Of a stretch of 64,000 nucleotides of DNA, positions 12,144 through 61,164 are shown piece after piece. Each line of letters starts with the position of its first letter. The first letter of the stretch is position 1. The DNA comes from Eledone cirrhosa (lineage: Eukaryota), in contig OZ024747.1 in NCBI GenBank assembly GCA_964016885.1, positions 47,554,001 to 47,618,000 of the forward strand, written 5' to 3'. A model generated the notes under the pieces. The model was not told where the DNA came from, did not search any database, and saw only the letters and a program-made list of their open reading frames with translations. The position numbers and the translations under genes are program-made.

Positions 12144-14212
12144 ATGAAGACGGGTAAGGCGGCTGGGCCTTCGGAAATAGTTGCTGAGATGCTGAAGGCA
12201 TCTGGCACGGTGGGACACACCATGGTCACCCGCATAGTTAACCAAGTCGTACAGAATGGGGTTGTTCCGAAGGACTGGCATAGCAGCATCATCGTTAACT
12301 GTTATAAGGGTAAAGGAGACGCCCTAGATAGGAGTAACTATAGAGGCATTAAATTAATCGACCAGGTCATGAAGGTCACGGAAAAAGTAATAGCACAACT
12401 AATCAGAGAGAGAATTGACCTAGATGAAATGCAGTTCGGGTTTGTGTCAGGCAAAAGTACCACAGACGCTCTTTTCATAGTACGGCAACTACAGGAGAAG
12501 TACCTAGCTAAAGGTAAACCCCTCTACTTAGCTTTTGTCGACTTGGAGAAAGCCTTCAACAGAGTCCCCCGCTCCATTATCTGGTGGGCTCTTAGAAAAC
12601 TAGGCGTTGACGAATGGCTTGTGAGGGCTATACAAGCCATGTATAAAGAAAGAGTCAGCAAGGTTAGAATTAACAACGAATATAGTGAAGAGTTTAGCGT
12701 AAAAGTTGGCGTCCATCAGGGCTCTGTTCTCAGCCCCCTACTATTTATTATTGCCCTTCAGGCTATAACAGAGAAGTTCAAGACAGGCTGCCCATGGGAA
12801 CTCCTATACGCAGACGACCTGACACTCATAGCGGAATCAATGGCCGAGCTAGAGAAGAAATTCCAAACATGGAAGCACGGCCTAGAGTCAAAAGGACTTA
12901 AAATTAACCTGGCTAAGACCAAAGTTCTAGTTTGTAGGAAAGAAAATAAGGCGGCGGTCCCTTCTGGGAAATGGTCGTGCTCGGTGTGTAGGAAAGGCGT
13001 AGGTAGAAACTCCATTTTATGTCCTAAATGCAAAGTATGGGTGCATAAAAGATGTAGTGGGATCACAGGTAAGCTAACTAAGAACATAGATTTTACATGT
13101 GGCCGGTGTTCTGGTGCAATAAGTAGCAGCAAGTGCCCACAAAATACTAGCTCTTTCAATTGCGCAGAGGGTTCTATAGAAATAGTGGACAGCTTCCGTT
13201 ACCTGGGCGATAAAATCAGCAGTGGGGGAGGGTGCTCTGAAAGTACTGTAGCTAGAGTCAGAACTGGTTGGAAAAAGTTCAGAGAGCTTATACCACTATT
13301 AGCTGCTAAAGGGTTCTCCCTAAAAATGAAAGGCAGGTTGTACGATGCCTGCATACGAACAGCAATGTTGCATGGCAGTGAGACCTGGGCATTGTGTGCA
13401 GAGGATATACGCAGACTAGAGAGGAACGAAGCTTGCATGCTCCGCTGGATGTGTAACAGTAATATACGTGAACGGCAAAGCATAAACGAACTAAGGAAAA
13501 AATTAGAGATAAGAGGGATCAGATGTTGTTTACTCGAGAGAAGGTTACGTTGGTATGGACACGTGATGCGCATGAAAGTCGATAGCTGTATAACAAAGTG
13601 CAGGGCAATAAAGATAGACGGTAGCCACGGAATAGGCAGACCTAGAAAAACCTGGGACGAGCTGATAAACTCCGACCTCACACACTTACACCTCTCCAAG
13701 ACAATGTCACTGGACCGAGACCTTTGGCGGTACTCAGTAACAGAGAAGACCTGCCTTACCACCGAGACCTTTGGCGGTACTCAGTAACAGAGAAGACCCG
13801 CCTTACCTAAATATATAGTAAAACCTACTCCAGCCAGTAGGCATCTCTAACAAAATACACCCCGTCCCACCACCACCACCCCCACCCCATCCACACCACC
13901 CCGTTCTATGTAAAGTTATGTTAGTGCCGCGCCATCCAGGCCGAAACAAATGAGATCGTGTAGGTGTCACGACAAAAAAACACACAGTCCACGCTGTAAT
14001 GTGGCCGTGTAGGCAACACGGTAAAAACCTCCCAGACCCACACTGTAAATGTGGTTGGTGTTAGGAAGGGCATCCAACTGTAGAAAACCTGCCAGACAGT
14101 CCTATGCGAGCAAGACAATCACTCTTGCCTCAAGTGGGACTACCCCCGTCCAGACCCATGCAAGCGTGGAACACGGACGTTAAACGTTGATGATGATGAT
14201 GATGATGATGAT
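12144..14212 (+). mobile_element. 5'-truncated young RTE LINE copy (RT + PHD), inserted in (TA)n
   Basis: ORF 12144-13787 with QGSVLSP and YADD RT motifs; about 8 aa differences from the intact copy; (GAT)n tail; 47-bp internal duplication at the ORF end. Confidence 0.95.
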
Positions 14213-14495
14213 ATGTATGTGTGTGTATATGTATATGTATATATGTGGGTGTCTGTGATCTATATACACTGGTCATAGACACACACACACATATACACAC
14301 ATATATATATATATACACACACACTCATATATATATATATATAGTAATAATTGTTTCTACTTTAGGCACAAGGCCAGCAATTACCCAGTGCATTACTGGT
14401 AGTAATAATAATAAATTTGAAGACTAAAATCCAAAGAGGGCTCGATAAGGATAAATATATATCAGATATATAAGAACCGTAGAGCAAATATTTAT

Positions 14496-19588: not shown

Positions 19589-21230
19589 GTAAGTTTTATT
19601 AAATATATATCTTTGACATTACCTAGTATTTTTTATTGACTAGAAAGCAAAAAAAAAGAAGTTATATAAAAAAAATTATAACAAGCTTATAAATATTTTG
19701 GTGGTTGTGTGGTGTTTGGCAAAATGTCAAATAAAGATAGAAACAAGTGGAGCCAGCAGTCCTCGACCGCAGAGATGACAAGTGCCTCAACAGAATTACC
19801 CTCGTCTCATTGAAGGAGGTAAATCCCTCATCTGAGAGGCCACATGGTGTGACACGTTCTCTGCCTCCAACTTAGTCACTGGTAGACTGTGACTCTGTTC
19901 TGCCAAGCTCCTCCACAAAATTGGTATGTCAGCAGCTTGTCTGAGGAAGGAGCCCTGCAAGGTGGGATGGTTGTTGCAGTAGGTGTTGCTGGCCATTGTC
20001 CATGGAAATGCCTTTGCGGTTCTGTCAGCTGAAAGATGACTCATGTATACACTGCTCCTTCCAGTTCTTGCTCCAGAATAAATCAATGACCTCTTAATAT
20101 ATCTTTGATTGAAGCAAGCAGATGATAGTTTGAAGGAACAAGATCTTGGCTGTATGAAGACTGCTTCAGTACCCCAGATTTCAGTTTCTGAAATCAACAA
20201 TGTGAGAAGCAGTGTAAGAGCAAGATTTGTTGTGCAACAATACAACTTTTAAAAGTACTCCATACTTCAATTTTTAACTTGTTATGCAACATCTCGTTAT
20301 AATGAGCACTGTTTACTATTGAGCCATTCTCAACTAATTAGACTTTGTGTTTTTCCATCTCTGTGTTTGTATTGTCATTTCTTTATCTCTCTCTCTATAT
20401 ATATAGATATAGATAGATAAATAGATAGATAGATAGTTGATGGCTGAGAAAAAAAAGAGTACTCAATACCGAAGTAGAGTTTAACTATTCATTTTATTAA
20501 TACTCTGGAGTTTCATCTGTCTATCACAGGGCAAAACTCCAGAGTAATAATTGTTTCTACTTTTGGCACAAGGCCAGCAATTACCCCAGTACATTACTGG
20601 TGCTTTATTTTATGGACCCTGTAAGGATGAAAGGCAAAGTTAACCTCGGCAGGATTTGAACTCAGACTGTAAAGGGGCATAACTCTATGCTGCAAAACAT
20701 GGCACTCACCCGCTACTGATACTGCCAATCCCTTATAATACTCACCATTTAGCCTTAATAAAATGAATAGCATAGTGGATAAGGTTTCAATCTCTATATA
20801 GGTAAATATATATACAATATTTATATATATATATATATATCATCATCATCATCATCATCAGCGTTTAACGTCCGTGTTCCACGCTTGCATGGGTTTGGAC
20901 GGGGGTAGTCCCACTTGAGGCAAGAGTGATTGTCTTGCTCGCATAGGACTGTCTGGCAGGTTTTCTACAGTTGGATGCCCTTCCTAACACCAACCACATT
21001 TACAGTGTGGGTCTGGGAGGTTTTTACCGTGTTGCCTACACGGCCACATTACAGCGTGGACTGTGTGTTTTTTTGTCGTGACACCTACACGATCTCATTT
21101 GTTTCGGCCTCGATGGCGCGGCACCAACATAACTTTACATAGAACGGGGTGGTGTGGATCGGGTGGGGGTGGTGGGACGGGGTGTATTTGTTAGAGATGC
21201 CTACTGGCTGGAGTAGGTTTTACTATATAT

Positions 21231-24200
21231 TTAGGTAAGGCGGGTCTTCTCTGTTACTGAGTACCGCCAAAGGTCTCGGTCCAGTGACATTGTCTTGGAG
21301 AGGTGTAAGTGTGTGATGTCGGAGTTTATCAGCTCGTCCCAGGTTTTTCTAGGTCTGCCTATTCCGTGACTACCGTCTATCTTTATTGCCCTGCACTTTG
21401 TTATACAGCTATCGACTTTCATGCGCATCACGTGTCCATACCAACGTAGCCTTCTCTCGAGTAAACAACATCTGATCCCTCTTATCTCTAATTTTTTCCT
21501 TAGTTCGTTTATGCTTTGCCGTTCACGTATATTACTGTTACACATCCAGCGGAGCATGCAAGCTTCGTTCCTCTCTAGTCTGCGTATATCCTCTGCACAC
21601 AATGCCCAGGTCTCACTGCCATGCAGCATTGCTGTTCGTATGCAGGCATCGTACAACCTGCCTTTCATTTTTAGTGAGAACCCTTTAGCAGCTAATAGTG
21701 GTATAAGCTCTCTGAACTTTTTCCAACCAGTTCTGACTCTAGCTACAGTACTTTCAGAGCACCCTCCCCCACTGCTGATTTTATCGCCCAGGTAACGGAA
21801 GCTGTCCACTATTTCTATAGAACCCTCTGCGCAATTGAAAGAGCTAGTAGTTTGTGGGCACTTGCTGCTACTTATTGCACCAGAGCACCGGCCACATGTA
21901 AAATCTATGTTCTTAGTTAGCCTACCTGTGATCCCACTACATCTTTTATGCACCCATACTTTGCATTTAGGACATAAAATGGAGTTTCTACCTACGCCTT
22001 TCCTACACACCGAGCACGACCATTTCCCAGAAGGGACCGCCGCCTTGTTTTCTTTCCTACAAACTAGTACTTTGGTCTTAGCCAGGTTAATTTTAAGTCC
22101 TTTTGACTCTAGGCCGTGCTTCCATGTTTGGAATTTCTTCTCTAGCTCGGCCATTGATTCCGCTATGAGTGTCAGGTCGTCTGCGTATAGGAGTTCCCAT
22201 GGGCAGCCTGTCTTGAACTCCTCTGTTATGGCCTGAAGGGCAATAATAAATAGTAGTGGACTGAGAACAGAGCCCTGATGGACGCCGACTTTTACGCTAA
22301 ACTCTTCACTATATTCGTTGTTAATTCTAACCTTGCTGACTGTTTCTTTATACATGGCTTGTATAGCCCTCACAAGCCATTCGTCAACGCCTAGTTTTCT
22401 AAGAGCCCACCAGATAATGGAGCGGGGGACTCTGTCGAAGGCTTTCTCCAAGTCGACAAAAGCTAAGTAGAGGGGTTTACCTTTAGCTAGGTACTTCTCT
22501 TGTAGTTGTCGTACTATGAAAAGAGCGTCTGTGGTACTTTTGCCTGACACAAACCCGAACTGCATTTCATCTAGGTCAATTCTCTCTCTGATTAGCTGCG
22601 CTATCACTCTTTCCGTGACCTTCATGACCTGGTCGATTAATTTAATGCCTCTATAGTTACTCCTATCTAGGGCGTCTCCTTTACCCTTATAACAGTTAAC
22701 GATGATGCTGCTATGCCAGTCCTTCGGAACAACCCCGTTTTGTACGACTTGGTTAACTATGCGGGTGACCATGGTGTGTCCCACCGTGCCAGATGCCTTC
22801 AGCATCTCAGCAACTATTTCCGAAGGCCCAGCCGCCTTACCAGTCTTCATATCCTTGATTGCCTTACTTATTATACTCCCCTCGACTAACACTGCTGGTC
22901 CCTCTATTGGGTCGATATGGGGGAGACTGCCTTTCTCCCAATTATTCTCCTCATTTAGAAGCCTTTCATAGTGACACTTCCAAGCTACCTTCTTATCAGC
23001 GTCGGTGATGGCAAGTGTGCCATCGTCGTTTAGTACACACTTCTCCCCGACAATATCACGGTTTTCCTTGACGCATTGCCTAGCAATCCTGAACACCTCA
23101 CGTTTTTGGTCATCGCGTTGTAGAACATGCTTGAACTTTCTTTCCTCAGCTTCCCTTCTTGCTAAGTACACTTGTCTCCTAGCTTCCCTCCTGGCCACTT
23201 GATAGTCCTCTCTACTTCCCCCATCCCGCCATACTTTCCAAGCCTGCTTTTTGGCCTTAATTGACCCCTCCACCTTACTGTTCCACCACCATGTTACTCT
23301 CCTCCTGCCTACAGGCCTGCTCCAGCCACAGACCTCGTCTGTCGCCAACAGCAGGTTTGCTTTCAGAAATTCCCACTCTCCCTCTATATTGTCCGACTCT
23401 AAATGTTCTTCCTTACTGTCGAAAGCATCAAGTAATATGCTTTGAAATTTATTCCTGGCTGTGGGGTCCTTTAACTTCCATATTTTCCTCCTGAGGATAG
23501 TCCTCTTCTGTTGTCGAGTACGTCTCGTCCTGACTATGAGGTCGCTAATTATCAGTCTATGTTGGGAGGTGCATTCTTCATGGGGGAGGGATTTAGTGTT
23601 AACAACAGACACTCTGTCACGTCTTCTGGTAAGGATATAATCTACCTGGCTTGTGTGTTCCCCGGATCTATAGGTGATCAGGTGATTGTCACGTTTTTTG
23701 AAGTTAGTGTTACAGATAGTTAGGTTATTTGCATCACAGAATTCCAGGATTCTGGAGCCTTCCTCATTTCTAGTACCAAACCCATAGCCTCCATGGATTT
23801 CGTCGTAGCCGTCACAATGTTGTCCAACGTGACCATTTAGGTCGCCTGCGATAATTATATAGTCACTGTCGGATATTTGGGAGGTAGTTAGCATCAGTGT
23901 CTCATAGAATCTGTCTTTTATAGTGCCGGGCAGTCCGGATTGGGGTGCGTACGCAGATATTACTGTCACCGTAGTTCTATTGAGGACAAGTCGTATTTTA
24001 ATTATTCTGTCGTTCACTCTATTTACGTCTATTATCTTATCTGCCCACTTTTCTGCTACCATGATTCCTACTCCACCCAGCCCATCGTCGTTTCCCACCC
24101 AGAAAAGCTTATAACAACGTTTTTTACCCTCAATGAACCTAGCAGACCCACCCCTCCACCTGGTCTCTTGAATACAACAAACATCGACCTCCTTACGTTC

Positions 24201-24401
24201 AAGCATTTCTACAACCTCGTTAGCGCGACCCTTTAGGGTGCCTACATTTATGGTACCAACTCTGAAGTTTTGGATTGCGTTTGGGGGTTGGGGGCGGTGA
24301 GGGGCGGGGGGCGATGGTGTTATGTTAGCCGTCCGCGGTCGAAACAATGAGGAGTGCTCGCATTCTCGTCCAAGGGGTGAATTTGTCTTTATCTTTGGCA
24401 T
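21231..24401 (-). CDS. Intact RTE ORF: APE endonuclease + reverse transcriptase + internal PHD finger
   Basis: Uninterrupted frame 21231-24593; APE motifs GTINVGTL, CIQETRW, GDLNGH, VDYIL, SQHRL; RT motifs QFGF, DLEKAFD, QGSVLSP, YADD, YLG; candidate starts at ATG 24461 or 24401. Confidence 0.95.
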   Translation of the reverse strand: MPKIKTNSPLGRECEHSSLFRPRTANITPSPPAPHRPQPPNAIQNFRVGTINVGTLKGRANEVVEMLERKEVDVCCIQETRWRGGSARFIEGKKRCYKLFWVGNDDGLGGVGIMVAEKWADKIIDVNRVNDRIIKIRLVLNRTTVTVISAYAPQSGLPGTIKDRFYETLMLTTSQISDSDYIIIAGDLNGHVGQHCDGYDEIHGGYGFGTRNEEGSRILEFCDANNLTICNTNFKKRDNHLITYRSGEHTSQVDYILTRRRDRVSVVNTKSLPHEECTSQHRLIISDLIVRTRRTRQQKRTILRRKIWKLKDPTARNKFQSILLDAFDSKEEHLESDNIEGEWEFLKANLLLATDEVCGWSRPVGRRRVTWWWNSKVEGSIKAKKQAWKVWRDGGSREDYQVARREARRQVYLARREAEERKFKHVLQRDDQKREVFRIARQCVKENRDIVGEKCVLNDDGTLAITDADKKVAWKCHYERLLNEENNWEKGSLPHIDPIEGPAVLVEGSIISKAIKDMKTGKAAGPSEIVAEMLKASGTVGHTMVTRIVNQVVQNGVVPKDWHSSIIVNCYKGKGDALDRSNYRGIKLIDQVMKVTERVIAQLIRERIDLDEMQFGFVSGKSTTDALFIVRQLQEKYLAKGKPLYLAFVDLEKAFDRVPRSIIWWALRKLGVDEWLVRAIQAMYKETVSKVRINNEYSEEFSVKVGVHQGSVLSPLLFIIALQAITEEFKTGCPWELLYADDLTLIAESMAELEKKFQTWKHGLESKGLKINLAKTKVLVCRKENKAAVPSGKWSCSVCRKGVGRNSILCPKCKVWVHKRCSGITGRLTKNIDFTCGRCSGAISSSKCPQTTSSFNCAEGSIEIVDSFRYLGDKISSGGGCSESTVARVRTGWKKFRELIPLLAAKGFSLKMKGRLYDACIRTAMLHGSETWALCAEDIRRLERNEACMLRWMCNSNIRERQSINELRKKLEIRGIRCCLLERRLRWYGHVMRMKVDSCITKCRAIKIDGSHGIGRPRKTWDELINSDITHLHLSKTMSLDRDLWRYSVTEKTRLT

Positions 24402-24525
24402 TGTCGCTGAGCGTCCAGATTTTTCTCTCTCACCTCCACTCTCCAGGATTCCGCAGTCCATCCATCCATCATATATCGTATATCGAAAGGCAACCAGGCA
24501 AGCGATAGTATAGGCCTCTGGTTTC

Positions 24526-24589
24526 TGATTGGTCCGCGTAATAATACTGGTGATACGTGGGGGCTGTTTTATGATTGGTCCACGTAATA
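24526..24589. promoter_or_regulatory. Duplicated 18-mer TGATTGGTCCRCGTAATA (CCAAT box fused to CCACGT/CCGCGT; ERSE-II/UPRE-II-like)
   Basis: ATTGGTCCGCGT at 24528-24539 and ATTGGTCCACGT at 24574-24585, 46 bp apart, in the LINE unique 5' UTR; function inferred only. Confidence 0.55.
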
Positions 24590-24629
24590 GCAATGGTGGT
24601 GTGTGGGGGTGGGAGGGAGGGGTGTTGGG

Positions 24630-27600
24630 TAGCTAGCAAGAAGGTAATGATTGAGATGGGTCTATGCATTTAACAAGCGATTAACAAAAATACAAAATTT
24701 GTTCAGTTAAATACGTCCAAAAACCTAAACGTATTTAGCACTTAATAGGAACAGAAAATGTAGTTTGTTTTAGCGATAGAATGGCTATTTGGACTTGAAA
24801 TACGAAATGAGAGAGAGAGAGGAGAGAGAGATGAAGTCTGTACCTTACGTTTACATGATTTTCGTTCGGACAGCAGGCAAAGAAATGAAATTTGGCGAAG
24901 TGAATTCCTATCATATATTTATAGGGAGAGAGAGAGAGAGAGAGAGGGAGTGCGAGGGTAGGGGGCCACATGATGGCTGTGGGTGTTAGGCGTTTGACCG
25001 CCCCGTGCCTTCGAAGAAGGAAGAAGGAAAGGATTTTGCTTTTTTTTGGGGTTTGAAAATACGTTAGGAATTAAGGTTTGAAAATAGCTAGCAAGAAGGT
25101 AATGATTGAGATGGGTCTATGCATTTAACAAGCGATTAACAAAAATACAAAATTTGTTCAGTTAAATACGTCCAAAAACCTAAACGTATTTAGCACTTAA
25201 TAGGAACAGAAAATGTAGTTTGTTTTAGCGATAGAATGGCTATTTGGACTTGAAATACGAAATGAGAGAGAGAGAGGAGAGAGAGATGAAGTCTGTACCT
25301 TACGTTTACATGATTTTCGTTCGGACAGCAGGCAAAGAAATGAAATTTGGCGAAGTGAATTCCTATCATATATTTATAGGGAGAGAGAGAGAGAGAGAGA
25401 GGGAGTGCGAGGGTAGGGGGCCACATGATGGCTGTGGGTGTTAGGCGTTTGACCGCCCCGTGCCTTCGAAGAAGGAAGAAGGAAAGGATTTTGCTTTTTT
25501 TTGGGGTTTGAAAATACGTTAGGAATTAAGGTTTGAAAATAGCTAGCAAGAAGGTAATGATTGAGATGGGTCTATGCATTTAACAAGCGATTAACAAAAA
25601 TACAAAATTTGTTCAGTTAAATACGTCCAAAAACCTAAACGTATTTAGCACTTAATAGGAACAGAAAATGTAGTTTGTTTTAGCGATAGAATGGCTATTT
25701 GGACTTGAAATACGAAATGAGAGAGAGAGAGGAGAGAGAGATGAAGTCTGTACCTTACGTTTACATGATTTTCGTTCGGACAGCAGGCAAAGAAATGAAA
25801 TTTGGCGAAGTGAATTCCTATCATATATTTATAGGGAGAGAGAGAGAGAGAGAGAGGGAGTGCGAGGGTAGGGGGCCACATGATGGCTGTGGGTGTTAGG
25901 CGTTTGACCGCCCCGTGCCTTCGAAGAAGGAAGAAGGAAAGGATTTTGCTTTTTTTTGGGGTTTGAAAATACGTTAGGAATTAAGGTTTGAAAATAGCTA
26001 GCAAGAAGGTAATGATTGAGATGGGTCTATGCATTTAACAAGCGATTAACAAAAATACAAAATTTGTTCAGTTAAATACGTCCAAAAACCTAAACGTATT
26101 TAGCACTTAATAGGAACAGAAAATGTAGTTTGTTTTAGCGATAGAATGGCTATTTGGACTTGAAATACGAAATGAGAGAGAGAGAGGAGAGAGAGATGAA
26201 GTCTGTACCTTACGTTTACATGATTTTCGTTCGGACAGCAGGCAAAGAAATGAAATTTGGCGAAGTGAATTCCTATCATATATTTATAGGGAGAGAGAGA
26301 GAGAGAGAGAGGGAGTGCGAGGGTAGGGGGCCACATGATGGCTGTGGGTGTTAGGCGTTTGACCGCCCCGTGCCTTCGAAGAAGGAAGAAGGAAAGGATT
26401 TTGCTTTTTTTTGGGGTTTGAAAATACGTTAGGAATTAAGGTTTGAAAATAGCTAGCAAGAAGGTAATGATTGAGATGGGTCTATGCATTTAACAAGCGA
26501 TTAACAAAAATACAAAATTTGTTCAGTTAAATACGTCCAAAAACCTAAACGTATTTAGCACTTAATAGGAACAGAAAATGTAGTTTGTTTTAGCGATAGA
26601 ATGGCTATTTGGACTTGAAATACGAAATGAGAGAGAGAGAGGAGAGAGAGATGAAGTCTGTACCTTACGTTTACATGATTTTCGTTCGGACAGCAGGCAA
26701 AGAAATGAAATTTGGCGAAGTGAATTCCTATCATATATTTATAGGGAGAGAGAGAGAGAGAGAGAGGGAGTGCGAGGGTAGGGGGCCACATGATGGCTGT
26801 GGGTGTTAGGCGTTTGACCGCCCCGTGCCTTCGAAGAAGGAAGAAGGAAAGGATTTTGCTTTTTTTTGGGGTTTGAAAATACGTTAGGAATTAAGGTTTG
26901 AAAATAGCTAGCAAGAAGGTAATGATTGAGATGGGTCTATGCATTTAACAAGCGATTAACAAAAATACAAAATTTGTTCAGTTAAATACGTCCAAAAACC
27001 TAAACGTATTTAGCACTTAATAGGAACAGAAAATGTAGTTTGTTTTAGCGATAGAATGGCTATTTGGACTTGAAATACGAAATGAGAGAGAGAGAGGAGA
27101 GAGAGATGAAGTCTGTACCTTACGTTTACATGATTTTCGTTCGGACAGCAGGCAAAGAAATGAAATTTGGCGAAGTGAATTCCTATCATATATTTATAGG
27201 GAGAGAGAGAGAGAGAGAGAGGGAGTGCGAGGGTAGGGGGCCACATGATGGCTGTGGGTGTTAGGCGTTTGACCGCCCCGTGCCTTCGAAGAAGGAAGAA
27301 GGAAAGGATTTTGCTTTTTTTTGGGGTTTGAAAATACGTTAGGAATTAAGGTTTGAAAATAGCTAGCAAGAAGGTAATGATTGAGAGGGTCTATGCATTT
27401 AACAAGCGATTAACAAAAATACAAAATTTGTTCAGTTAAATACGTCCAAAAACCTAAACGTATTTAGCACTTAATAGGAACAGAAAATGTAGTTTGTTTT
27501 AGCGATAGAATGGCTATTTGGACTTGAAATACGAAATGAGAGAGAGAGAGGAGAGAGAGATGAAGTCTGTACCTTACGTTTACATGATTTTCGTTCGGAC

Positions 27601-30600
27601 AGCAGGCAAAGAAATGAAATTTGGCGAAGTGAATTCCTATCATATATTTATAGGGAGAGAGAGAGAGAGAGAGAGGGAGTGCGAGGGTAGGGGGCCACAT
27701 GATGGCTGTGGGTGTTAGGCGTTTGACCGCCCCGTGCCTTCGAAGAAGGAAGAAGGAAAGGATTTTGCTTTTTTTTGGGGTTTGAAAATACGTTAGGAAT
27801 TAAGGTTTGAAAATAGCTAGCAAGAAGGTAATGATTGAGATGGGTCTATGCATTTAACAAGCGATTAACAAAAATACAAAATTTGTTCAGTTAAATACGT
27901 CCAAAAACCTAAACGTATTTAGCACTTAATAGGAACAGAAAATGTAGTTTGTTTTAGCGATAGAATGGCTATTTGGACTTGAAATACGAAATGAGAGAGA
28001 GAGAGGAGAGAGAGATGAAGTCTGTACCTTACGTTTACATGATTTTCGTTCGGACAGCAGGCAAAGAAATGAAATTTGGCGAAGTGAATTCCTATCATAT
28101 ATTTATAGGGAGAGAGAGAGAGAGAGAGAGGGAGTGCGAGGGTAGGGGGCCACATGATGGCTGTGGGTGTTAGGCGTTTGACCGCCCCGTGCCTTCGAAG
28201 AAGGAAGAAGGAAAGGATTTTGCTTTTTTTTGGGGTTTGAAAATACGTTAGGAATTAAGGTTTGAAAATAGCTAGCAAGAAGGTAATGATTGAGATGGGT
28301 CTATGCATTTAACAAGCGATTAACAAAAATACAAAATTTGTTCAGTTAAATACGTCCAAAAACCTAAACGTATTTAGCACTTAATAGGAACAGAAAATGT
28401 AGTTTGTTTTAGCGATAGAATGGCTATTTGGACTTGAAATACGAAATGAGAGAGAGAGAGGAGAGAGAGATGAAGTCTGTACCTTACGTTTACATGATTT
28501 TCGTTCGGACAGCAGGCAAAGAAATGAAATTTGGCGAAGTGAATTCCTATCATATATTTATAGGGAGAGAGAGAGAGAGAGAGAGGGAGTGCGAGGGTAG
28601 GGGGCCACATGATGGCTGTGGGTGTTAGGCGTTTGACCGCCCCGTGCCTTCGAAGAAGGAAGAAGGAAAGGATTTTGCTTTTTTTTGGGGTTTGAAAATA
28701 CGTTAGGAATTAAGGTTTGAAAATAGCTAGCAAGAAGGTAATGATTGAGATGGGTCTATGCATTTAACAAGCGATTAACAAAAATACAAAATTTGTTCAG
28801 TTAAATACGTCCAAAAACCTAAACGTATTTAGCACTTAATAGGAACAGAAAATGTAGTTTGTTTTAGCGATAGAATGGCTATTTGGACTTGAAATACGAA
28901 ATGAGAGAGAGAGAGGAGAGAGAGATGAAGTCTGTACCTTACGTTTACATGATTTTCGTTCGGACAGCAGGCAAAGAAATGAAATTTGGCGAAGTGAATT
29001 CCTATCATATATTTATAGGGAGAGAGAGAGAGAGAGAGAGGGAGTGCGAGGGTAGGGGGCCACATGATGGCTGTGGGTGTTAGGCGTTTGACCGCCCCGT
29101 GCCTTCGAAGAAGGAAGAAGGAAAGGATTTTGCTTTTTTTTGGGGTTTGAAAATACGTTAGGAATTAAGGTTTGAAAATAGCTAGCAAGAAGGTAATGAT
29201 TGAGAGGGTCTATGCATTTAACAAGCGATTAACAAAAATACAAAATTTGTTCAGTTAAATACGTCCAAAAACCTAAACGTATTTAGCACTTAATAGGAAC
29301 AGAAAATGTAGTTTGTTTTAGCGATAGAATGGCTATTTGGACTTGAAATACGAAATGAGAGAGAGAGAGGAGAGAGAGATGAAGTCTGTACCTTACGTTT
29401 ACATGATTTTCGTTCGGACAGCAGGCAAAGAAATGAAATTTGGCGAAGTGAATTCCTATCATATATTTATAGGGAGAGAGAGAGAGAGAGAGAGGGAGTG
29501 CGAGGGTAGGGGGCCACATGATGGCTGTGGGTGTTAGGCGTTTGACCGCCCCGTGCCTTCGAAGAAGGAAGAAGGAAAGGATTTTGCTTTTTTTGGGGGT
29601 TTGAAAATACGTTAGGAATTAAGGTTTGAAAATAGCTAGCAAGAAGGTAATGATTGAGATGGGTCTATGCATTTAACAAGCGATTAACAAAAATACAAAA
29701 TTTGTTCAGTTAAATACGTCCAAAAACCTAAACGTATTTAGCACTTAATAGGAACAGAAAATGTAGTTTGTTTTAGCGATAGAATGGCTATTTGGACTTG
29801 AAATACGAAATGAGAGAGAGAGAGGAGAGAGAGATGAAGTCTGTACCTTACGTTTACATGATTTTCGTTCGGACAGCAGGCAAAGAAATGAAATTTGGCG
29901 AAGTGAATTCCTATCATATATTTATAGGGAGAGAGAGAGAGAGAGAGAGGGAGTGCGAGGGTAGGGGGCCACATGATGGCTGTGGGTGTTAGGCGTTTGA
30001 CCGCCCCGTGCCTTCGAAGAAGGAAGAAGGAAAGGATTTTGCTTTTTTTTGGGGTTTGAAAATACGTTAGGAATTAAGGTTTGAAAATAGCTAGCAAGAA
30101 GGTAATGATTGAGATGGGTCTATGCATTTAACAAGCGATTAACAAAAATACAAAATTTGTTCAGTTAAATACGTCCAAAAACCTAAACGTATTTAGCACT
30201 TAATAGGAACAGAAAATGTAGTTTGTTTTAGCGATAGAATGGCTATTTGGACTTGAAATACGAAATGAGAGAGAGAGAGGAGAGAGAGATGAAGTCTGTA
30301 CCTTACGTTTACATGATTTTCGTTCGGACAGCAGGCAAAGAAATGAAATTTGGCGAAGTGAATTCCTATCATATATTTATAGGGAGAGAGAGAGAGAGAG
30401 AGAGGGAGTGCGAGGGTAGGGGGCCACATGATGGCTGTGGGTGTTAGGCGTTTGACCGCCCCGTGCCTTCGAAGAAGGAAGAAGGAAAGGATTTTGCTTT
30501 TTTTTGGGGTTTGAAAATACGTTAGGAATTAAGGTTTGAAAATAGCTAGCAAGAAGGTAATGATTGAGAGGGTCTATGCATTTAACAAGCGATTAACAAA

Positions 30601-31556
30601 AATACAAAATTTGTTCAGTTAAATACGTCCAAAAACCTAAACGTATTTAGCACTTAATAGGAACAGAAAATGTAGTTTGTTTTAGCGATAGAATGGCTAT
30701 TTGGACTTGAAATACGAAATGAGAGAGAGAGAGGAGAGAGAGATGAAGTCTGTACCTTACGTTTACATGATTTTCGTTCGGACAGCAGGCAAAGAAATGA
30801 AATTTGGCGAAGTGAATTCCTATCATATATTTATAGGGAGAGAGAGAGAGAGAGAGAGGGAGTGCGAGGGTAGGGGGCCACATGATGGCTGTGGGTGTTA
30901 GGCGTTTGACCGCCCCGTGCCTTCGAAGAAGGAAGAAGGAAAGGATTTTGCTTTTTTTGGGGTTTGAAAATACGTTAGGAATTAAGGTTTGAAAATAGCT
31001 AGCAAGAAGGTAATGATTGAGAGGGTCTATGCATTTAACAAGCGATTAACAAAAATACAAAATTTGTTCAGTTAAATACGTCCAAAAACCTAAACGTATT
31101 TAGCACTTAATAGGAACAGAAAATGTAGTTTGTTTTAGCGATAGAATGGCTATTTGGACTTGAAATACGAAATGAGAGAGAGAGAGGAGAGAGAGATGAA
31201 GTCTGTACCTTACGTTTACATGATTTTCGTTCGGACAGCAGGCAAAGAAATGAAATTTGGCGAAGTGAATTCCTATCATATATTTATAGGGAGAGAGAGA
31301 GAGAGAGAGAGGGAGTGCGAGGGTAGGGGGCCACATGATGGCTGTGGGTGTTAGGCGTTTGACCGCCCCGTGCCTTCGAAGAAGGAAGAAGGAAAGGATT
31401 TTGCTTTTTTTGGGGTTTGAAAATACGTTAGGAATTAAGGTTTGAAAATAGCTAGCAAGAAGGTAATGATTGAGAGGGTCTATGCATTTAACAAGCGATT
31501 AACAAAAATACAAAATTTGTTCAGTTAAATACGTCCAAAAACCTAAACGTATTTAG
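24630..31556 (-). repeat. Tandem array, 15 full monomers (453-455 bp) plus 108 bp, collinear with the RTE
   Basis: Units start TAGCTAGCAAGAAGG at 24630, 25085 ... 31449; near-identical. Confidence 0.98.
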
Positions 31557-34500
31557 ACCCTCTCAATCATTACCTTCTTGCTAGCTATTTTCAAACCTTA
31601 ATTCCTAACGTATTTTCAAACCCCAAAAAAAGCAAAATCCTTTCCTTCTTCCTTCTTCGAAGGCACGGGGCGGTCAAACGCCTAACACCCACAGCCATCA
31701 TGTGGCCCCCTACCCTCGCACTCCCTCTCTCTCTCTCTCTCTCTCCCTATAAATATATGATAGGAATTCACTTCGCCAAATTTCATTTCTTTGCCTGCTG
31801 TCCGAACGAAAATCATGTAAACGTAAGGTACAGACTTCATCTCTCTCTCCTCTCTCTCTCTCATTTCGTATTTCAAGTCCAAATAGCCATTCTATCGCTA
31901 AAACAAACTACATTTTCTGTTCCTATTAAGTGCTAAATACGTTTAGGTTTTTGGACGTATTTAACTGAACAAATTTTGTATTTTTGTTAATCGCTTGTTA
32001 AATGCATAGACCCTCTCAATCATTACCTTCTTGCTAGCTATTTTCAAACCTTAATTCCTAACGTATTTTCAAACCCCAAAAAAAGCAAAATCCTTTCCTT
32101 CTTCCTTCTTCGAAGGCACGGGGCGGTCAAACGCCTAACACCCACAGCCATCATGTGGCCCCCTACCCTCGCACTCCCTCTCTCTCTCTCTCTCTCTCCC
32201 TATAAATATATGATAGGAATTCACTTCGCCAAATTTCATTTCTTTGCCTGCTGTCCGAACGAAAATCATGTAAACGTAAGGTACAGACTTCATCTCTCTC
32301 TCCTCTCTCTCTCTCATTTCGTATTTCAAGTCCAAATAGCCATTCTATCGCTAAAACAAACTACATTTTCTGTTCCTATTAAGTGCTAAATACGTTTAGG
32401 TTTTTGGACGTATTTAACTGAACAAATTTTGTATTTTTGTTAATCGCTTGTTAAATGCATAGACCCATCTCAATCATTACCTTCTTGCTAGCTATTTTCA
32501 AACCTTAATTCCTAACGTATTTTCAAACCCCAAAAAAAAGCAAAATCCTTTCCTTCTTCCTTCTTCGAAGGCACGGGGCGGTCAAACGCCTAACACCCAC
32601 AGCCATCATGTGGCCCCCTACCCTCGCACTCCCTCTCTCTCTCTCTCTCTCTCCCTATAAATATATGATAGGAATTCACTTCGCCAAATTTCATTTCTTT
32701 GCCTGCTGTCCGAACGAAAATCATGTAAACGTAAGGTACAGACTTCATCTCTCTCTCCTCTCTCTCTCTCATTTCGTATTTCAAGTCCAAATAGCCATTC
32801 TATCGCTAAAACAAACTACATTTTCTGTTCCTATTAAGTGCTAAATACGTTTAGGTTTTTGGACGTATTTAACTGAACAAATTTTGTATTTTTGTTAATC
32901 GCTTGTTAAATGCATAGACCCTCTCAATCATTACCTTCTTGCTAGCTATTTTCAAACCTTAATTCCTAACGTATTTTCAAACCCCAAAAAAAGCAAAATC
33001 CTTTCCTTCTTCCTTCTTCGAAGGCACGGGGCGGTCAAACGCCTAACACCCACAGCCATCATGTGGCCCCCTACCCTCGCACTCCCTCTCTCTCTCTCTC
33101 TCTCTCCCTATAAATATATGATAGGAATTCACTTCGCCAAATTTCATTTCTTTGCCTGCTGTCCGAACGAAAATCATGTAAACGTAAGGTACAGACTTCA
33201 TCTCTCTCTCCTCTCTCTCTCTCATTTCGTATTTCAAGTCCAAATAGCCATTCTATCGCTAAAACAAACTACATTTTCTGTTCCTATTAAGTGCTAAATA
33301 CGTTTAGGTTTTTGGACGTATTTAACTGAACAAATTTTGTATTTTTGTTAATCGCTTGTTAAATGCATAGACCCTCTCAATCATTACCTTCTTGCTAGCT
33401 ATTTTCAAACCTTAATTCCTAACGTATTTTCAAACCCCAAAAAAAGCAAAATCCTTTCCTTCTTCCTTCTTCGAAGGCACGGGGCGGTCAAACGCCTAAC
33501 ACCCACAGCCATCATGTGTCCCCCTACCCTCGCACTCCCTCTCTCTCTCTCTCTCTCTCCCTATAAATATATGATAGGAATTCACTTCGCCAAATTTCAT
33601 TTCTTTGCCTGCTGTCCGAACGAAAATCATGTAAACGTAAGGTACAGACTTCATCTCTCTCTCCTCTCTCTCTCTCATTTCGTATTTCAAGTCCAAATAG
33701 CCATTCTATCGCTAAAACAAACTACATTTTCTGTTCCTATTAAGTGCTAAATACGTTTAGGTTTTTGGACGTATTTAACTGAACAAATTTTGTATTTTTG
33801 TTAATCGCTTGTTAAATGCATAGACCCTCTCAATCATTACCTTCTTGCTAGCTATTTTCAAACCTTAATTCCTAACGTATTTTCAAACCCCCAAAAAAGC
33901 AAAATCCTTTCCTTCTTCCTTCTTCGAAGGCACGGGGCGGTCAAACGCCTAACACCCACAGCCATCATGTGGCCCCCTACCCTCGCACTCCCTCTCTCTC
34001 TCTCTCTCTCTCCCTATAAATATATGATAGGAATTCACTTCGCCAAATTTCATTTCTTTGCCTGCTGTCCGAACGAAAATCATGTAAACGTAAGGTACAG
34101 ACTTCATCTCTCTCTCCTCTCTCTCTCTCATTTCGTATTTCAAGTCCAAATAGCCATTCTATCGCTAAAACAAACTACATTTTCTGTTCCTATTAAGTGC
34201 TAAATACGTTTAGGTTTTTGGACGTATTTAACTGAACAAATTTTGTATTTTTGTTAATCGCTTGTTAAATGCATAGACCCTCTCAATCATTACCTTCTTG
34301 CTAGCTATTTTCAAACCTTAATTCCTAACGTATTTTCAAACCCCAAAAAAAGCAAAATCCTTTCCTTCTTCCTTCTTCGAAGGCACGGGGCGGTCAAACG
34401 CCTAACACCCACAGCCATCATGTGGCCCCCTACCCTCGCACTCCCTCTCTCTCTCTCTCTCTCTCCCTATAAATATATGATAGGAATTCACTTCGCCAAA

Positions 34501-36015
34501 TTTCATTTCTTTGCCTGCTGTCCGAACGAAAATCATGTAAACGTAAGGTACAGACTTCATCTCTCTCTCCTCTCTCTCTCTCATTTCGTATTTCAAGTCC
34601 AAATAGCCATTCTATCGCTAAAACAAACTACATTTTCTGTTCCTATTAAGTGCTAAATACGTTTAGGTTTTTGGACGTATTTAACTGAACAAATTTTGTA
34701 TTTTTGTTAATCGCTTGTTAAATGCATAGACCCTCTCAATCATTACCTTCTTGCTAGCTATTTTCAAACCTTAATTCCTAACGTATTTTCAAACCCCAAA
34801 AAAAGCAAAATCCTTTCCTTCTTCCTTCTTCGAAGGCACGGGGCGGTCAAACGCCTAACACCCACAGCCATCATGTGGCCCCCTACCCTCGCACTCCCTC
34901 TCTCTCTCTCTCTCTCTCCCTATAAATATATGATAGGAATTCACTTCGCCAAATTTCATTTCTTTGCCTGCTGTCCGAACGAAAATCATGTAAACGTAAG
35001 GTACAGACTTCATCTCTCTCTCCTCTCTCTCTCTCATTTCGTATTTCAAGTCCAAATAGCCATTCTATCGCTAAAACAAACTACATTTTCTGTTCCTATT
35101 AAGTGCTAAATACGTTTAGGTTTTTGGACGTATTTAACTGAACAAATTTTGTATTTTTGTTAATCGCTTGTTAAATGCATAGACCCTCTCAATCATTACC
35201 TTCTTGCTAGCTATTTTCAAACCTTAATTCCTAACGTATTTTCAAACCCCAAAAAAAGCAAAATCCTTTCCTTCTTCCTTCTTCGAAGGCACGGGGCGGT
35301 CAAACGCCTAACACCCACAGCCATCATGTGGCCCCCTACCCTCGCACTCCCTCTCTCTCTCTCTCTCTCTCCCTATAAATATATGATAGGAATTCACTTC
35401 GCCAAATTTCATTTCTTTGCCTGCTGTCCGAACGAAAATCATGTAAACGTAAGGTACAGACTTCATCTCTCTCTCCTCTCTCTCTCTCATTTCGTATTTC
35501 AAGTCCAAATAGCCATTCTATCGCTAAAACAAACTACATTTTCTGTTCCTATTAAGTGCTAAATACGTTTAGGTTTTTGGACGTATTTAACTGAACAAAT
35601 TTTGTATTTTTGTTAATCGCTTGTTAAATGCATAGACCCATCTCAATCATTACCTTCTTGCTAGCTATTTTCAAACCTTAATTCCTAACGTATTTTCAAA
35701 CCCCAAAAAAAAGCAAAATCCTTTCCTTCTTCCTTCTTCGAAGGCACGGGGCGGTCAAACGCCTAACACCCACAGCCATCATGTGGCCCCCTACCCTCGC
35801 ACTCCCTCTCTCTCTCTCTCTCTCTCTCCCTATAAATATATGATAGGAATTCACTTCGCCAAATTTCATTTCTTTGCCTGCTGTCCGAACGAAAATCATG
35901 TAAACGTAAGGTACAGACTTCATCTCTCTCTCCTCTCTCTCTCTCATTTCGTATTTCAAGTCCAAATAGCCATTCTATCGCTAAAACAAACTACATTTTC
36001 TGTTCCTATTAAGTG

Positions 36016-36018
<3 letters not shown>
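31554..36018 (+). repeat. Inverted portion of the monomer array (~9.8 units of 453-457 bp)
   Basis: Reverse complement of the same monomer; junction TTTAG|ACCC with TAG microhomology; ends AAGTGCTA then (TA)n. Confidence 0.98.
35806..35911 (+). promoter_or_regulatory. Putative core promoter present in every monomer (last copy shown): (CT)n, TATAAA, Inr, downstream donor-like site
   Basis: TATAAATA at 35831, YYANWYY match CCAAATT with its A 30 nt downstream of the TATA start, AAC|GTAAGG at 35906; oriented in the LINE-sense direction of the monomer. Confidence 0.45.
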
Positions 36019-36074
<56 letters not shown>

Positions 36075-37793: not shown

Positions 37794-37852
37794 TAATCTT
37801 CTATACACAATCATACACACCCGTGTATACTTATTTATATATATATATATAT

Positions 37853-38098
37853 CATCATCATCATCATCATCAACGTTTAACGTCCGTGTTCCACGCTTGC
37901 ATGGGTTTGGACGGGGGTAGTCCCACTTGAGGCAAGAGTGATTGTCTTGCTCGCATAGGACTGTCTGGCAGGTTTTCTACAGTTGGATGCCCTTCCTAAC
38001 ACCAACCACATTTACAGTGTGGGTCTGGGAGGTTTTTACCGTGTTGCCTACACGGCCACATTACAGCGTGGACTGTGTGTTTTTTTGTCGTGACACCT
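37853..38098 (-). mobile_element. Severely 5'-truncated young RTE insertion (3' UTR only)
   Basis: Essentially identical to 20841-21087 including the GGGGGTAGTCCCACTTG variant; (GAT)n tail; (TA)n flanks. Confidence 0.9.
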
Positions 38099-38135: not shown

Positions 38136-38194
<59 letters not shown>

Positions 38195-38234
38195 ATACAT
38201 ATATATGTATATGTATATATATATATGTATATAT

Positions 38235-41112
38235 CATCATCATCATCAACGTTTAACGTCCGTGTTCCACGCTTGCATGGGTTTGGACGGGGGTATTCCC
38301 ATTTGAGGCAAGAGTGATTGTCTTGCTCGCATAGGACTGTCTGGCAGGTTTTCTACAGTTGGATGCCCTTCCTAACACCAACCACATTTACAGTGTGGGT
38401 CTGGGAGGTTTTTACCGTGTTGCCTACACGGCCACATTACAGCGTGGACTGTGTGTTTTTTTGTCGTGACACCTACATGATCTCATTTGTTTCGGCCTGG
38501 ATGGTGTGGCACCAACATAACTTTACATAGAAGGGGGCGGTGTGGATGGGGTGGGGGTGGTGGGACGGGGGTGTATTTTGTTAGAGATGCCTACTGACTG
38601 TAGTAGGTTTTACTTTGTATTTAGGTAAGGCGGGTCTTCTCTATTACTGAGTACCGCCAAAGGTCTCGGTCCAGTGACATTGTCTTGGTGAGGTGTAAGT
38701 GTGTGAGGTCGGAGTTTATCAGCTCGTCCCAGGTTTTTCTGGGTCTGCCTATTCCGTGGCTACCGTCTATCTTTATTGCCCTGCACTTTGTTATACAGCT
38801 ATCATCCTTCATGCGCATCACGTGACCATACCAACGTAGCCTTCTCTCTAGTAAACAACATCTGATCCCTCTTATTTCTAATTTTTTCCTTAGTTCGTTT
38901 ATGCTTTGTCGTTCACGTATATTACTATTACACATCCAGCGGAGCATGCAAGCTTCGTTTCTCTCTAGTCTGCGTATATCCTCTGCACACAATGCCCAGG
39001 TCTCACTGCCATGCAACATTGCTGTTCGTATGCAGGCATCGTACAGCCTGCCTTTCATTTTTAGGGAGAACCCTTTAGCGGCTAATAGTGGTATAAGCTC
39101 TCTGAACTTTTTCCACCTAGTTCTGACTCTAGCTACTGTACTTTCAGAGCACCCTCCCCCACTGCTGATTTTGTCACCCAGGTAACGGAAGCTGTCCACT
39201 ATTTCTATAGAACCCTCTGCGCAGTTGAAAGAGCTAGTATTTTGTGGGCACTTGCTGCTACTTATATCCCCAGAACACCGGCCACATGTAAAATCTATGT
39301 TCTTAGTTAGCTTACCTGTGATCCCACTACATCTTTTATGCACCCAAACTTTGCATTTGGGACACAAAATGGAATTTCTACCTACGCCTTTCCTACACTC
39401 TGCGCATGGCCACTTCCCGGAGGGGACCGCCGCCTTATTTTCTTTCTTACAAACTAGAACTTTAGTCTTAGCTAGGTTAATTTTAAGGCCTTTTGATTCT
39501 AGGCCGTGCTTCCATGTTTGGAATTTCCTCTCTAGTTCAGCCATTGATTCAGCTATAAGCGTTAGATCATCAGCGTATAGGAGTTCCCATGAGCAGCCGG
39601 TCTTGAACTCCACTGTTATAGCCTGGAGGGCAATAATAAATAGTAGGGGGCTAAGAACAGAGCCCTGATGAACACCAACTTTTACACTAAACTCTTCACT
39701 ATATTCGTTGTTAATTCTAACCTTGCTAACTGTTTCTTTATACATGGCTTGTATAGCTCTCACAAGCCATTCATCAACACCTAGTTTTCTAAGAGCCCAC
39801 CAGATAATGGAACGGGGGACTCTGTCGAAGGCCTTCTCCAAGTCGACGAAAGCTAAGTATAGGGGTTTACTTTTAGCTAGGTACTTCTCCTGTAGTTGTC
39901 GTACAATGAAAAGAGCGTCTGTGGTACTTTTTCCTGACACAAACCCGAACTGCATTTCATCTAGATCAATTCGCTCTCTGATTAGTTGCGCTATAACTTT
40001 TTCCGTGACCTTCATGACCTGGTCGATTAATTTAATGCCTCTATAGTTACTCCTATCTAGGGCATCTCCTTTACCCTTATAACAGTTAATGATAATGCTG
40101 CTGCGCCAGTCCTTCGGAACAACCCCATTCTGTATGACTTGGTTGACTATCCGGGTGACCATGGTGTGTCCCACCGTACCAGATGCCTTCAGCATCTCGG
40201 CAACTATTTCCGAAGGCCCAGCCGCCTTGCCTGTCTTCATATCTTTGATTGCCTTACTTATTATACTACTCTCAACTAACACTGCTGGTCCCTCTATTGG
40301 GTCGATGTGGGGGAGACTGTCTTTCTCCCATTTATTCTCCTCATTTAGTAGCCTTTCATAGTGACACTTCCAAGCTACCTTCTTATCGGCGTCGGTGATG
40401 GCAAGTATGCCGTCATCGTTAAGTACACACTTCTCCCCGACAATATCACTGTTTTCCTTGACACATTGCCTAGCAATCCTGAACACCTCACGTTTTTGGT
40501 CATCGCGTTGTAGAACATGCTTGAACTTTCTTTCCTCTGCTTCCCTTCTTGCGAAGTACACTTGTCTCCTAGCTTCCCTCCTGGCCACTTGATAGTCTTC
40601 TCTGCTTCCCCCATCCCGCCATACTTTCCAAGCCTGCTTTTTGGCCTTAATTGACCCCTCCACCTTGCTGTTCCACCACTATGTTACTCTCCTCCTGCTT
40701 ACAGGCCTGCTCCAGCCACAGACTTCGTCTGCCGCCGTCAGCAGGTTTGCTTTCAGGAATTCCCACTGTTCCTCTACCTTGTACGTCTTTAATTTCTCTT
40801 CCTCACTGTCGAAAGCATCAAGTAATATGCTTTGGAATTTATTTTTGGCTGTGGGGTCCTTTAGCTTCCATATTTTTCTCCTGAGGATAGTCCTCTTCTG
40901 TTGTCTAGTACGTCTCGTCCTGACTATTATGTCGCTACTTATCAGTCTATGTTGGGAAGTGCATTCTTCATGGGGGAGGGATTTAGTGTTTACGACAGTC
41001 ACTTTGTCACGTCTTCTGGTAAGGATATAATCTACCTGGCTAGTATGTTCCCCTGATCTGTAGGTGATCAAGTGATTGTCTCGTTTTTTGAAGTTAGTGT
41101 TGCAGATAGTTA

Positions 41113-41113
<1 letters not shown>
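38235..41113 (-). mobile_element. 5'-truncated RTE LINE copy with premature stop
   Basis: ORFs 40679-41071 and 38621-40663 are one frame broken by TGG>TAG at 40679-40681; PHD and YADD retained; (TA)n flanks. Confidence 0.95.
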
Positions 41114-43812: not shown

Positions 43813-45601
43813 TATAATATATACATATAAAAACCTTCGATATGCGATTAACATAACACGTAGAAGGTACATAAATTGTAGCGCATATACAAATAGATGT
43901 GTGTTTTGGTAGTTTGGGGAGAAAAATATAATTTGGAGAAGGGGGGGGGGGGGGCACAATGACATCACTCGGTTGCAAGCCCAATGCTCTAACCACTAAG
44001 CCGTGCACCTTCACATAAGTTTATACAGTAATCAATTAATAAAATCACAACACACCTATTAGGATAACGACAGTGATTATTTTTCAGAGGCAGATTATAC
44101 TAATTGATTATTCTATTAATTAATTTACTTTACCCATGCTTTCACTGTCATACAATCTATACAGATCAGTTCCATATAAATAGCTATAAAATTAAATTCT
44201 CTCTATGAACAGGAAATGAGAAATCGATATCTGATGAAGCAGGAGTAACTATGAAACTGAAATTAGTCCATCAATCTCTTTTTCTAGTCATAGAAAGAGA
44301 AATCTGTGATTTAACTCCTTTGATAACCCCCCCCCCCCCCCCCCCCCCGAATCTGCTCCTGGTTCTATGATAGAAATATTTGTCTATGATAGAAAGATAT
44401 TTGTCTTAAAGTATTTATATTTATCATTCCATCATAATTTTATGTGAGATCATTTGTTAGATTATGTTCCAAGCACCAGATTAATAATGAGAAATTTAGT
44501 TACTTTAGTGAATTCTTCCAAATTCTTCTTTATTGTCAAAATTAATTTCAAAAAAATCATAGGCAGTGTTTATCATTAGAAATATGGCAACAAAAGAATT
44601 AACTCGTGTTTACTTTTCACAGCAAGGCTAAATTGTTTGTTTACTAAAGACACATGCTTATAAGTTTAACTTACACACACACACACAAGCATACACACAC
44701 ACGCATACATACATACATACAAACATATATACATACATAATGGCTGTCCCTCGTTATCGAGTATGGCCATTGCACAATATAACATTATTAATAATTATCA
44801 ATCAATGTTATCGTGCAATGCCTGTGCGTGAAGATTTTTTATAAAGTGAGGAAAGACTGTGCACTGAGCCAATCCCACTCTCTGAGTGACAGTAGCTATA
44901 ACCTGAAAAGAAGAAAAGATCAACATCATTGGTAACTACTGAGCTGCAGGTTTTATGTCAGAGTTATCCCAGTTTCCTGAGTTGCCTTTTCCCAGAAGAA
45001 TGCCCTGGCAAAGGCTAGGGGTCCTTCACTCCCAGTGGTTTCACCATGCGATCAGGTATTCAGCCTGATTATTTCTATGTCCCCGTGCATATACATACAC
45101 ATGCATACATGTATATACATATATACATATATACACATGCATACATGTATATTTTCACACTTTTGGATAGCCATTGACTCTTATGAGTTCTTCCACCCTT
45201 TGTCAGGTTTTGTTTTTTGTCCTGCAAGGTGTCCAAAATCACCCTCCTCACCAAGTCGGGTCATTCTTGAGTGCTACTGGTAACATGTAACCCAGTACAA
45301 CCTGTTGCATAGTCAGGTCGTTGGCAACTAAACCGGCAACCCCACCAAGTTTACATACATACAGTCCATGCTGTAATGTGGCCGTGTAGGTAACACAGTA
45401 AAAACCTCCCAGTCCACACTGTAAATGTGGTTGGTGTTAGGAAGGGCATCCAGCCGTAGAAAAACCGCCAGACAGTCCTATACGAGCAGAACAACAAATC
45501 TTGCCTCAAGTGGGAAACCTCCCGTCCAAACCCATGCAAGCGTGGAAGATGGACGTTAAACGATGATGATGATGATGATGATGATGATGACATACACACA
45601 T

Positions 45602-60444: not shown

Positions 60445-61164
60445 CATTTACGTTACTCTACATTTACTATTATATTTTCACAGTAAAGGCTTTACCCCAC
60501 ATAATATCTCACATAACATTTACATTACTCTATATATACTATTGTATTTTCATGGTAAAGGCTTTACCTCACATAATATCTCACATAGCATTTACGTTAC
60601 TCTACATTTACTATTGTATTTTCATGGTAAAGGCTATACCTCACATAATATCTCACATAACATTTACATTACTCTACATTTACTATTGTATTTTCATGGT
60701 AAAGGCTATACCTCACATAATATCTCACATAGCATTTACGTTACTCTACATTTACTATTGTATTTTCATGGTAAAGGCTATACCTCACATAATATCTCAC
60801 ATGGCATTTACGTTACTCTACATTTACTATTGTATTTTCACAGTAAAGGCTTTACCTCACATAATATCTCACATAACATTTACATTACTCTATATATACT
60901 ATTATATTTTCATAGTAAAGGCTTTACCCCACATAATATCTCACATAACATTTACATTACTCTATATATACTATTGTATTTTCATGGTAAAGGCTTTACC
61001 TCACATAATATCTCACATAACATTTACATTACTCTATATATACTATTGTATTTTCACAGTAAAGGCTTTACCTCACATAATATCTCACATAGCATTTACG
61101 TTACTCTACATTTACTATTGTATTTTCATGGTAAAGGCTTTACCTCACATAATATCTCACATAA
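60445..61164. repeat. 72-bp minisatellite x10 derived from the piggyBac MITE left end
   Basis: Preceded by TTAA-CCCTTTAG; unit CATTTACRTTACTCTA...AAAGGCTWTACCYCACATAATATCTCACATAR matches the MITE interior. Confidence 0.9.

Follow-up and report, generated by a model that had tools for sequence, protein, structure and literature searches.

The region analyzed here is a window of 64,000 nt from Eledone cirrhosa (assembly GCA_964016885.1, OZ024747.1:47,554,001-47,618,000, forward strand); all positions given below are those of this window, i.e., of the whole stretch. On its minus strand it carries a long interspersed nuclear element (LINE), whose open reading frame (ORF) lies downstream of an array of 455-bp monomers. 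The outer 4.46 kb of this array is inverted. Together, the collinear and inverted arms form an array of ~11.4 kb, in which Tandem Repeats Finder counted 15.2 monomer copies over 24630-31556 and a further 9.9 over 31554-36022. The features of the element and its insertion site are listed in Table 1, and the origin of the inversion is the subject of this work.

Table 1. Features of the LINE and of its insertion site (window positions; UTR, untranslated region; AP, apurinic/apyrimidinic; cDNA, complementary DNA; a dot stands where no strand is given)
Feature	Position	Strand	Remarks
(TA)9 target microsatellite, element 3' side	20822..20839	.	AT common to tail and tract
(GAT)7 tail of element	20839..20859	-	sequence
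3' UTR	20860..21230	-	
Intact single ORF: AP-type endonuclease, reverse transcriptase, PHD-like finger	21231..24632	-	1133 codons stop to stop; first in-frame ATG 24461
G-run tract on cDNA strand, predicted G-quadruplex, at array/UTR border	24605..24629	+	sequence and ViennaRNA prediction
Collinear arm of 5' array: 15.2 monomers of 453-455 bp	24630..31556	-	Tandem Repeats Finder
71-bp spacer (monomer 350-420) between arms of resulting long inverted repeat	31483..31553	.	read from sequence
TAG microhomology at central junction (first arm, monomer 347-349; second arm, monomer 421-423)	31554..31556	.	
Inverted arm of 5' array: 9.9 monomers, monomer position 421 to 349	31554..36018	+	
(TA)27.5 target microsatellite, element 5' side	36017..36071	.	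TA at 36017-36018 common to inverted arm

The element appears to be an RTE-like LINE, an assignment made by layout and not by tree. Its ORF matched PF03372, PF14529 and PF00078 and, weakly, a PHD finger (below the curated cut-off for PHD_2, above that for PHD). The traits of the RTE clade that were found are a single ORF with AP endonuclease and reverse transcriptase, without ORF1, and a (GAT)7 tail rather than poly(A); a short tandem-repeat tail instead of poly(A) is a feature of this clade. The best protein homologues showed 53-54% identity, and their records carry no clade names. An Rfam scan of 24200-25600 gave no match at E values up to 5, so no ribozyme defines monomer position 421, at which the inverted arm starts.

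To describe the junctions, we use element-sense monomer coordinates over 455 bp, in which the register can be read only modulo the monomer length. The collinear arm ends ...AAACGTATTTAG at 31556, which is its start in the monomer (position 347), and the inverted arm, which starts at 421, ends ...TAAGTGCTA at 36018 (position 349) and is followed by (TA)27.5. Bases 347-349 (CTA/TAG) are thus common to both arms; TA of these bases is also present in the target, and TAG also at the start of the inverted arm, where it is shared with the collinear arm at 31554-31556. Counting this central TAG as part of the inverted arm places the start of the collinear arm at 350, with zero bases lost or gained. 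This geometry, including the 3-nt TAG overlap with the next bases of the monomer and the TA shared with the target at the far end, had been described in an earlier note on this DNA and was confirmed. Two unrelated arm ends would fall this close together (within 3 bases, modulo 455) with a probability of ~0.015. The internal site TAAATA (UAAAUA in RNA, 348-353) matches TATATA in 5/6 positions and is one of five TA-starting sites per monomer that match at 5/6 or better. The inversion extends exactly to the target, and no (TA)n remnant is present at the center.

The array is a trait of the family. Exact matching finds the array/UTR junction 175 times in the assembly, a monomer motif 734 times and a 3' ORF motif 22,005 times. 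We examined 103 other array-bearing copies (39 + 56 + 8), picked from the best-scoring or first-listed matches. All 103 arrays, ranging from 36 bp to 16.4 kb, are in sense orientation, i.e., the tandem monomers belong to the 5' end of the element, as in LINEs of the mouse L1Md type. Arrays exceed 8 kb in nine of these copies, three of which reach the total length found at the present locus (11.4, 14.9 and 16.4 kb), and monomer lengths across the family are 450-547 bp. The 5' ends of the arrays are scattered over the monomer, and 64 of the 89 scored ends adjoin (TA)n, a conservative count, as five ends were mis-scored; the five ends scored at monomer position 277 were artefacts of an insertion variant. 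We also considered whether starts are fixed at monomer 410-428, but the excess there is unconvincing (~8 of ~97 ends versus ~4 expected, counted by hand).

Scattered ends that abut (TA)n are the pattern of 5' truncation and support reverse transcription of the array sequence. The earlier note had derived this point from the inversion itself. It is true that array and element move together, but the 103 sister copies show this better, and because their arrays bear the truncation pattern, retrotransposition of the array is supported independently of the inversion. The family is also very young: 39 bodies align over their full length at 99.5-100% identity (values that round to 100), and the body of the present element has two differences over 3.16 kb from the nearest of 58 siblings compared.

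Other copies were seen in the course of this survey. The window holds four more 5'-truncated copies that belong to this family or to a related one (12142-14244, 37836-38098, 38178-41113 and 45357-45585); three of the four begin at or beside (TA)n, and the copy at 37836-38098 is 99.6% identical to the main element. An older subfamily (~93-96% identical; L176, L189, L191, L194, L062, L085 and L181) matches the body only from about base 66-85, and its different 5' end suggests replacement of the 5' UTR.

Monomer variants made it possible to ask how the two arms are related. The variants are a deletion of A at 38, a deletion of A at 428 and a few singletons. If monomers are paired as mirror images around the center, 9 of the 11 pairs differ (the first two, I00p/C16p and I01/C15, are identical), and the inverted part is therefore not a copy of the collinear part. 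When the variants are read in RNA order (inverted arm followed by collinear arm), they grade across the break from mostly 453-type to mostly 455-type. Both linked variant haplotypes are present on both arms, as is the deletion at 428, which is private to this window (12/12 exact matches in the assembly). The order of variants and the presence of both haplotypes on both arms point to an array of at least 4-5 monomers before inversion, and hence to an RNA of ~6 kb or more.

These data are probably best explained by a single, very young insertion of an RTE-like LINE that targets (TA)n, in which the outer 4.46 kb of the array was inverted during insertion by twin priming, a model reportedly proposed by Ostertag and Kazazian in 2001 for 5'-inverted insertions of mammalian L1. 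The endonuclease would cut the (TA)n tract, and one target end would prime on the (GAT)n tail and copy the ORF and the array down to monomer position 347-350. The other target end, ...TATATA, would anneal within the array at UAAAUA (348-353, 5/6) and copy the RNA further upstream, and the two cDNA ends would then join at TAG. Since a first cDNA that stops at the site of the second primer would end in TAG, the second cDNA would have to join at TAG. The template RNA would be at least ~6 kb, as judged from variant order, and at most 15.2 kb, with part of the array possibly added by amplification at or after insertion. The ORF and 15 monomers remained intact because the break fell inside the array. 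The arm ratio (collinear:inverted) is 2.4. The sequence features expected of twin priming that could be tested are present, except recurrence in the family.

Several observations weigh against this explanation. Twin priming here is a single case. A survey of other copies for 5' inversions, which the earlier note had proposed, covered only some members of this large family (its 3' motif has 22,005 exact matches) and yielded no further example: no inverted piece was found in the array of any of the 103 other array-bearing copies, and none of at least 40 bp was found beside the visible 5' end of any of 74 body copies. The family inversion rate is thus probably under ~2% (0/177 others). Bodies were collinear where visible (38, then 58 of 60 with two cut by gaps, four whole and one more), and two (L214 and L215) are visible for 0.5 kb only. 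Three of the 103 copies were left unresolved: the bodies of L119 and L120 stop at assembly gaps, and the array of L027 ends at a gap. The flanks, (TA)9 on one side and (TA)27.5 on the other, allow no unique target-site duplication (TSD) to be delimited inside (TA)n. None of four read runs examined over 31480-31720 spanned the central junction; they contained ordinary monomers only and appear to come from other individuals or species. The joint is clean, whereas most 5' inversions of L1 carry a deletion or duplication (66% an internal deletion and 17% a duplication; bioRxiv 2024.08.27.596794; here and below, statements on other systems are those of the available parts of the cited sources). Cell assays recorded 5' inversions almost exclusively for human L1; the one non-L1 case is Nimb-2_DR (PMC4245944). 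Finally, the sequence itself leaves room for another route, discussed below.

One candidate inversion in the survey was rejected. At L193, an apparent 5'-to-5' pair is a nested insertion, with pieces that continue across 3433/3434: a family copy (L193:4896-7473) is inserted into another at body position 3433/3434, outside any (TA)n tract.

The earlier note had taken the geometry of the junctions to define twin priming. Twin priming survives as the best reading, but an inversion alone is no proof of it, as a reciprocal exchange at TAG would give identical letters. In such a case, a 5'-truncated copy starting (TA)n-TAGACCC would have exchanged strands at TAG with the internal site GCTAAATA after insertion, flipping 4.46 kb in balance. 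Both junctions are the exact reciprocal products of one such exchange, and in the hypothetical un-inverted allele an inverted match of 6/7 spans both breakpoints. Just this (TA)n-ATAGACCC joint forms the 5' end of L208, a sister copy of ordinary structure; this and the 6/7 match make a later reciprocal inversion feasible. Two more copies, L088 and L100, end at about position 420, and (TA)n tracts are break-prone. However, one break must have hit the joint between element and target to the base, leaving at the center no TA repeat of the 55-bp tract, and perfect homology is only 3 bp. In addition, the very young insertion has acquired only about one private change per 3 kb. Its body differs little from the nearest sibling, and the diversity of the array (3 substitutions in 24 monomers, 0.28/kb) equals the private change of the body (1 in 3.16 kb, 0.32/kb; both small counts), so there was little time for later rearrangement. 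We consider an inversion after insertion improbable, though it fares best among the alternatives.

It is a still weaker possibility that two templates were involved, the second target end having primed on a different molecule derived from the same source element (another RNA or second-strand DNA), in which case no single 15-kb RNA was copied. The register is known only modulo 455, and the arm ends may derive from different monomers; moreover, the private deletion at 428 occurs on both arms, as expected of two transcripts from one source. Independent templates, however, would meet within 3 bases only by the coincidence calculated above (~0.015).

An assembly artefact, in which the near-identical array was partly turned around by a mis-join or a chimeric read, seems about equally improbable. 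It could account for the lack of junction-spanning reads in the four runs, and family arrays do adjoin assembly gaps elsewhere (L027), but it needs two new, mutually balanced junctions with 3-bp homology, and a palindrome from a missed adapter would be a mirror, which the variants reject. The window contains no N, and among the 40 of 976 candidates that were scored the central junction was matched in full length only at this locus. A second copy of the right flank (haplotig or empty allele) was sought in the assembly and none was found, the best other match being 73% over 179 bases.

Least probable of all is a fold-back, in which the end of the first cDNA (...TATTTAG) snapped back 71 bases onto its own CTA and copied itself, the hairpin joined (TA)n and later amplification blurred the mirror: the spacer is indeed short, at 71 bp, and no difference separates the two innermost mirrored pairs (I00p/C16p, I01/C15), but the remaining 9 of 11 pairs differ, and a far end in register with the central break would again be a 0.015 coincidence.

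Even if twin priming is accepted, the length of the copied RNA is a separate matter. The earlier note had inferred cDNAs of ~10.7 and ~4.5 kb and unusually processive reverse transcription. This was not established: because arrays of the family amplify in place and siblings differ in monomer number, these lengths are best treated as upper bounds. Within each locus the arrays are homogeneous, and most are private. Among 27 arrays with at least three monomers, 24 have a commonest monomer type that was seen at no other of the 62 loci compared, and a fixed private change occurs in 10 of 26 other arrays. L027, L042 and L047 have two monomer types in common, in the same order but in different monomer numbers.

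Amplification in place at the 5' end of the element is real. At L078 (G000:C3:96977272-96987271) a ~1.87-kb unit and at L103 (G000:C1:142896500-142906499) a ~1.55-kb unit, each composed of genomic flank, (TA)n and a truncated monomer, are present threefold at 99.9%; both units break at monomer 442-448. The L078 flank occurs at 99.9% identity only at L078, and its triplication must therefore have taken place there. The junction-mapped duplications at L078, L103 and L041 (93 bp) break at monomer 442-450, just before the G-run tract, and a fourth (57 bp, L016) does not break near it. Stalling of second-strand synthesis at the predicted quadruplex could drive re-copying.

Array and body diversity per kb are similar at most loci compared, and at the present locus their agreement speaks against late growth of the array. 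The idea that arrays are much younger than bodies was thus unsupported; the array therefore arose either in the source element or at about the time it inserted. As read from the sequence, a 15.2-kb RNA and a shorter RNA followed by amplification fit the data equally and were not separated. A more far-reaching scheme, which we find doubtful, is that the reverse transcriptase of the family copies RNAs of 15-20 kb and twin-primes deep in the array, that in roughly every transposition cycle one or a few monomers are expanded into a new array by re-copying that stalls at the G-run tract, and that each insertion thereby seeds a private satellite with the ORF intact.

Two sets of arrays deserve separate description. 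L027, L042, L047 and L020 are siblings that share the order of types in unequal numbers, and where the types switch in L027 there is a hybrid monomer with 19 inserted bases. L041/L113 (G000:C7:81.18-81.20 Mb) has a 16.4-kb array in which most units contain an internal duplication of 93 bp whose end lies near position 450; a private change is present in 31/31 of its units, and its body has none.

If confirmed, the locus would extend twin priming to an invertebrate RTE-like element, with arms about seven times the median L1 arm lengths, and would leave an intact element inside a 4.5-kb near-perfect inverted repeat. This repeat could yield double-stranded RNA against the family's own 5' end. More broadly, a very young LINE that disperses and regrows arrays of 0.5-kb monomers up to 16 kb offers a system for the question of how 5' arrays expand, and the same family bears on how satellites arise from retrotransposons.

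Elsewhere in the window, a 72-bp tandem array (10 copies, 60445-61167) lies just upstream of a 535-codon ORF at 61255-62862, which we take to be gag-like with a CCHC-type motif; 60445-62862 is possibly another LINE with a repeated 5' region. Remnants at 53276-54679 presumably belong to a hAT-type DNA transposase, which they resemble.

Twin priming in RTE elements or in invertebrates, or a 5'-inverted RTE copy, was reported nowhere in the openly accessible listings and main-text passages covered by the search. Inversions are unmentioned in the main text of a repeat annotation paper and of the report on octopus RTE-2_OV, where the words 'tandem' and 'inversion' are absent and the UTRs are given as ~600 nt (PMC9115989). 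RTE-2_OV is otherwise like the present element, by description and not by sequence identity: both have a single ORF of ~1100 amino acids with endonuclease, reverse transcriptase and a zinc-finger-like region, and a microsatellite-associated 3' end.

Mouse L1Md elements likewise have tandem 5' monomers in variable number and 5'-truncated, which expand by second-strand priming or unequal crossing-over, with an extreme of 50 monomers; inverted 5' UTRs are mentioned as data not shown (PMC6454616). The monomers of the present family are longer (450-547 bp versus ~200 in L1Md), and its arrays (>8 kb in 9/103 copies) are homogeneous within a locus. Unlike in L1Md, the 5' ends are scattered, with no clear common truncation site, and the promoter role of the array is putative.

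The closest parallel to the inversion is offered by twin-primed L1. In L1, 5' inversions have microhomology at both joints and affect ~30% of copies (PMC2912911); their arm lengths are correlated, with a mean arm ratio of 2.6 and median arms of 1.51 and 0.54 kb (bioRxiv 2024.08.27.596794). The present copy resembles them in several ways: its inverted 5' part reaches the target, the ends of the arms are in register, both joints show microhomology and the arm ratio lies in the same range (~2.4-2.6). It differs in that the element is RTE-like and has (GAT)n as its tail and (TA)n as its target, whereas L1 has poly(A) and a TTTT/AA target, and in that its arms, at 10.7 and 4.5 kb, far exceed the L1 medians. 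Inverted copies are also rarer than in L1 (probably under ~2% versus ~30%), and the break lies inside a tandem array, with the ORF intact and any TSD not resolvable in (TA)n.

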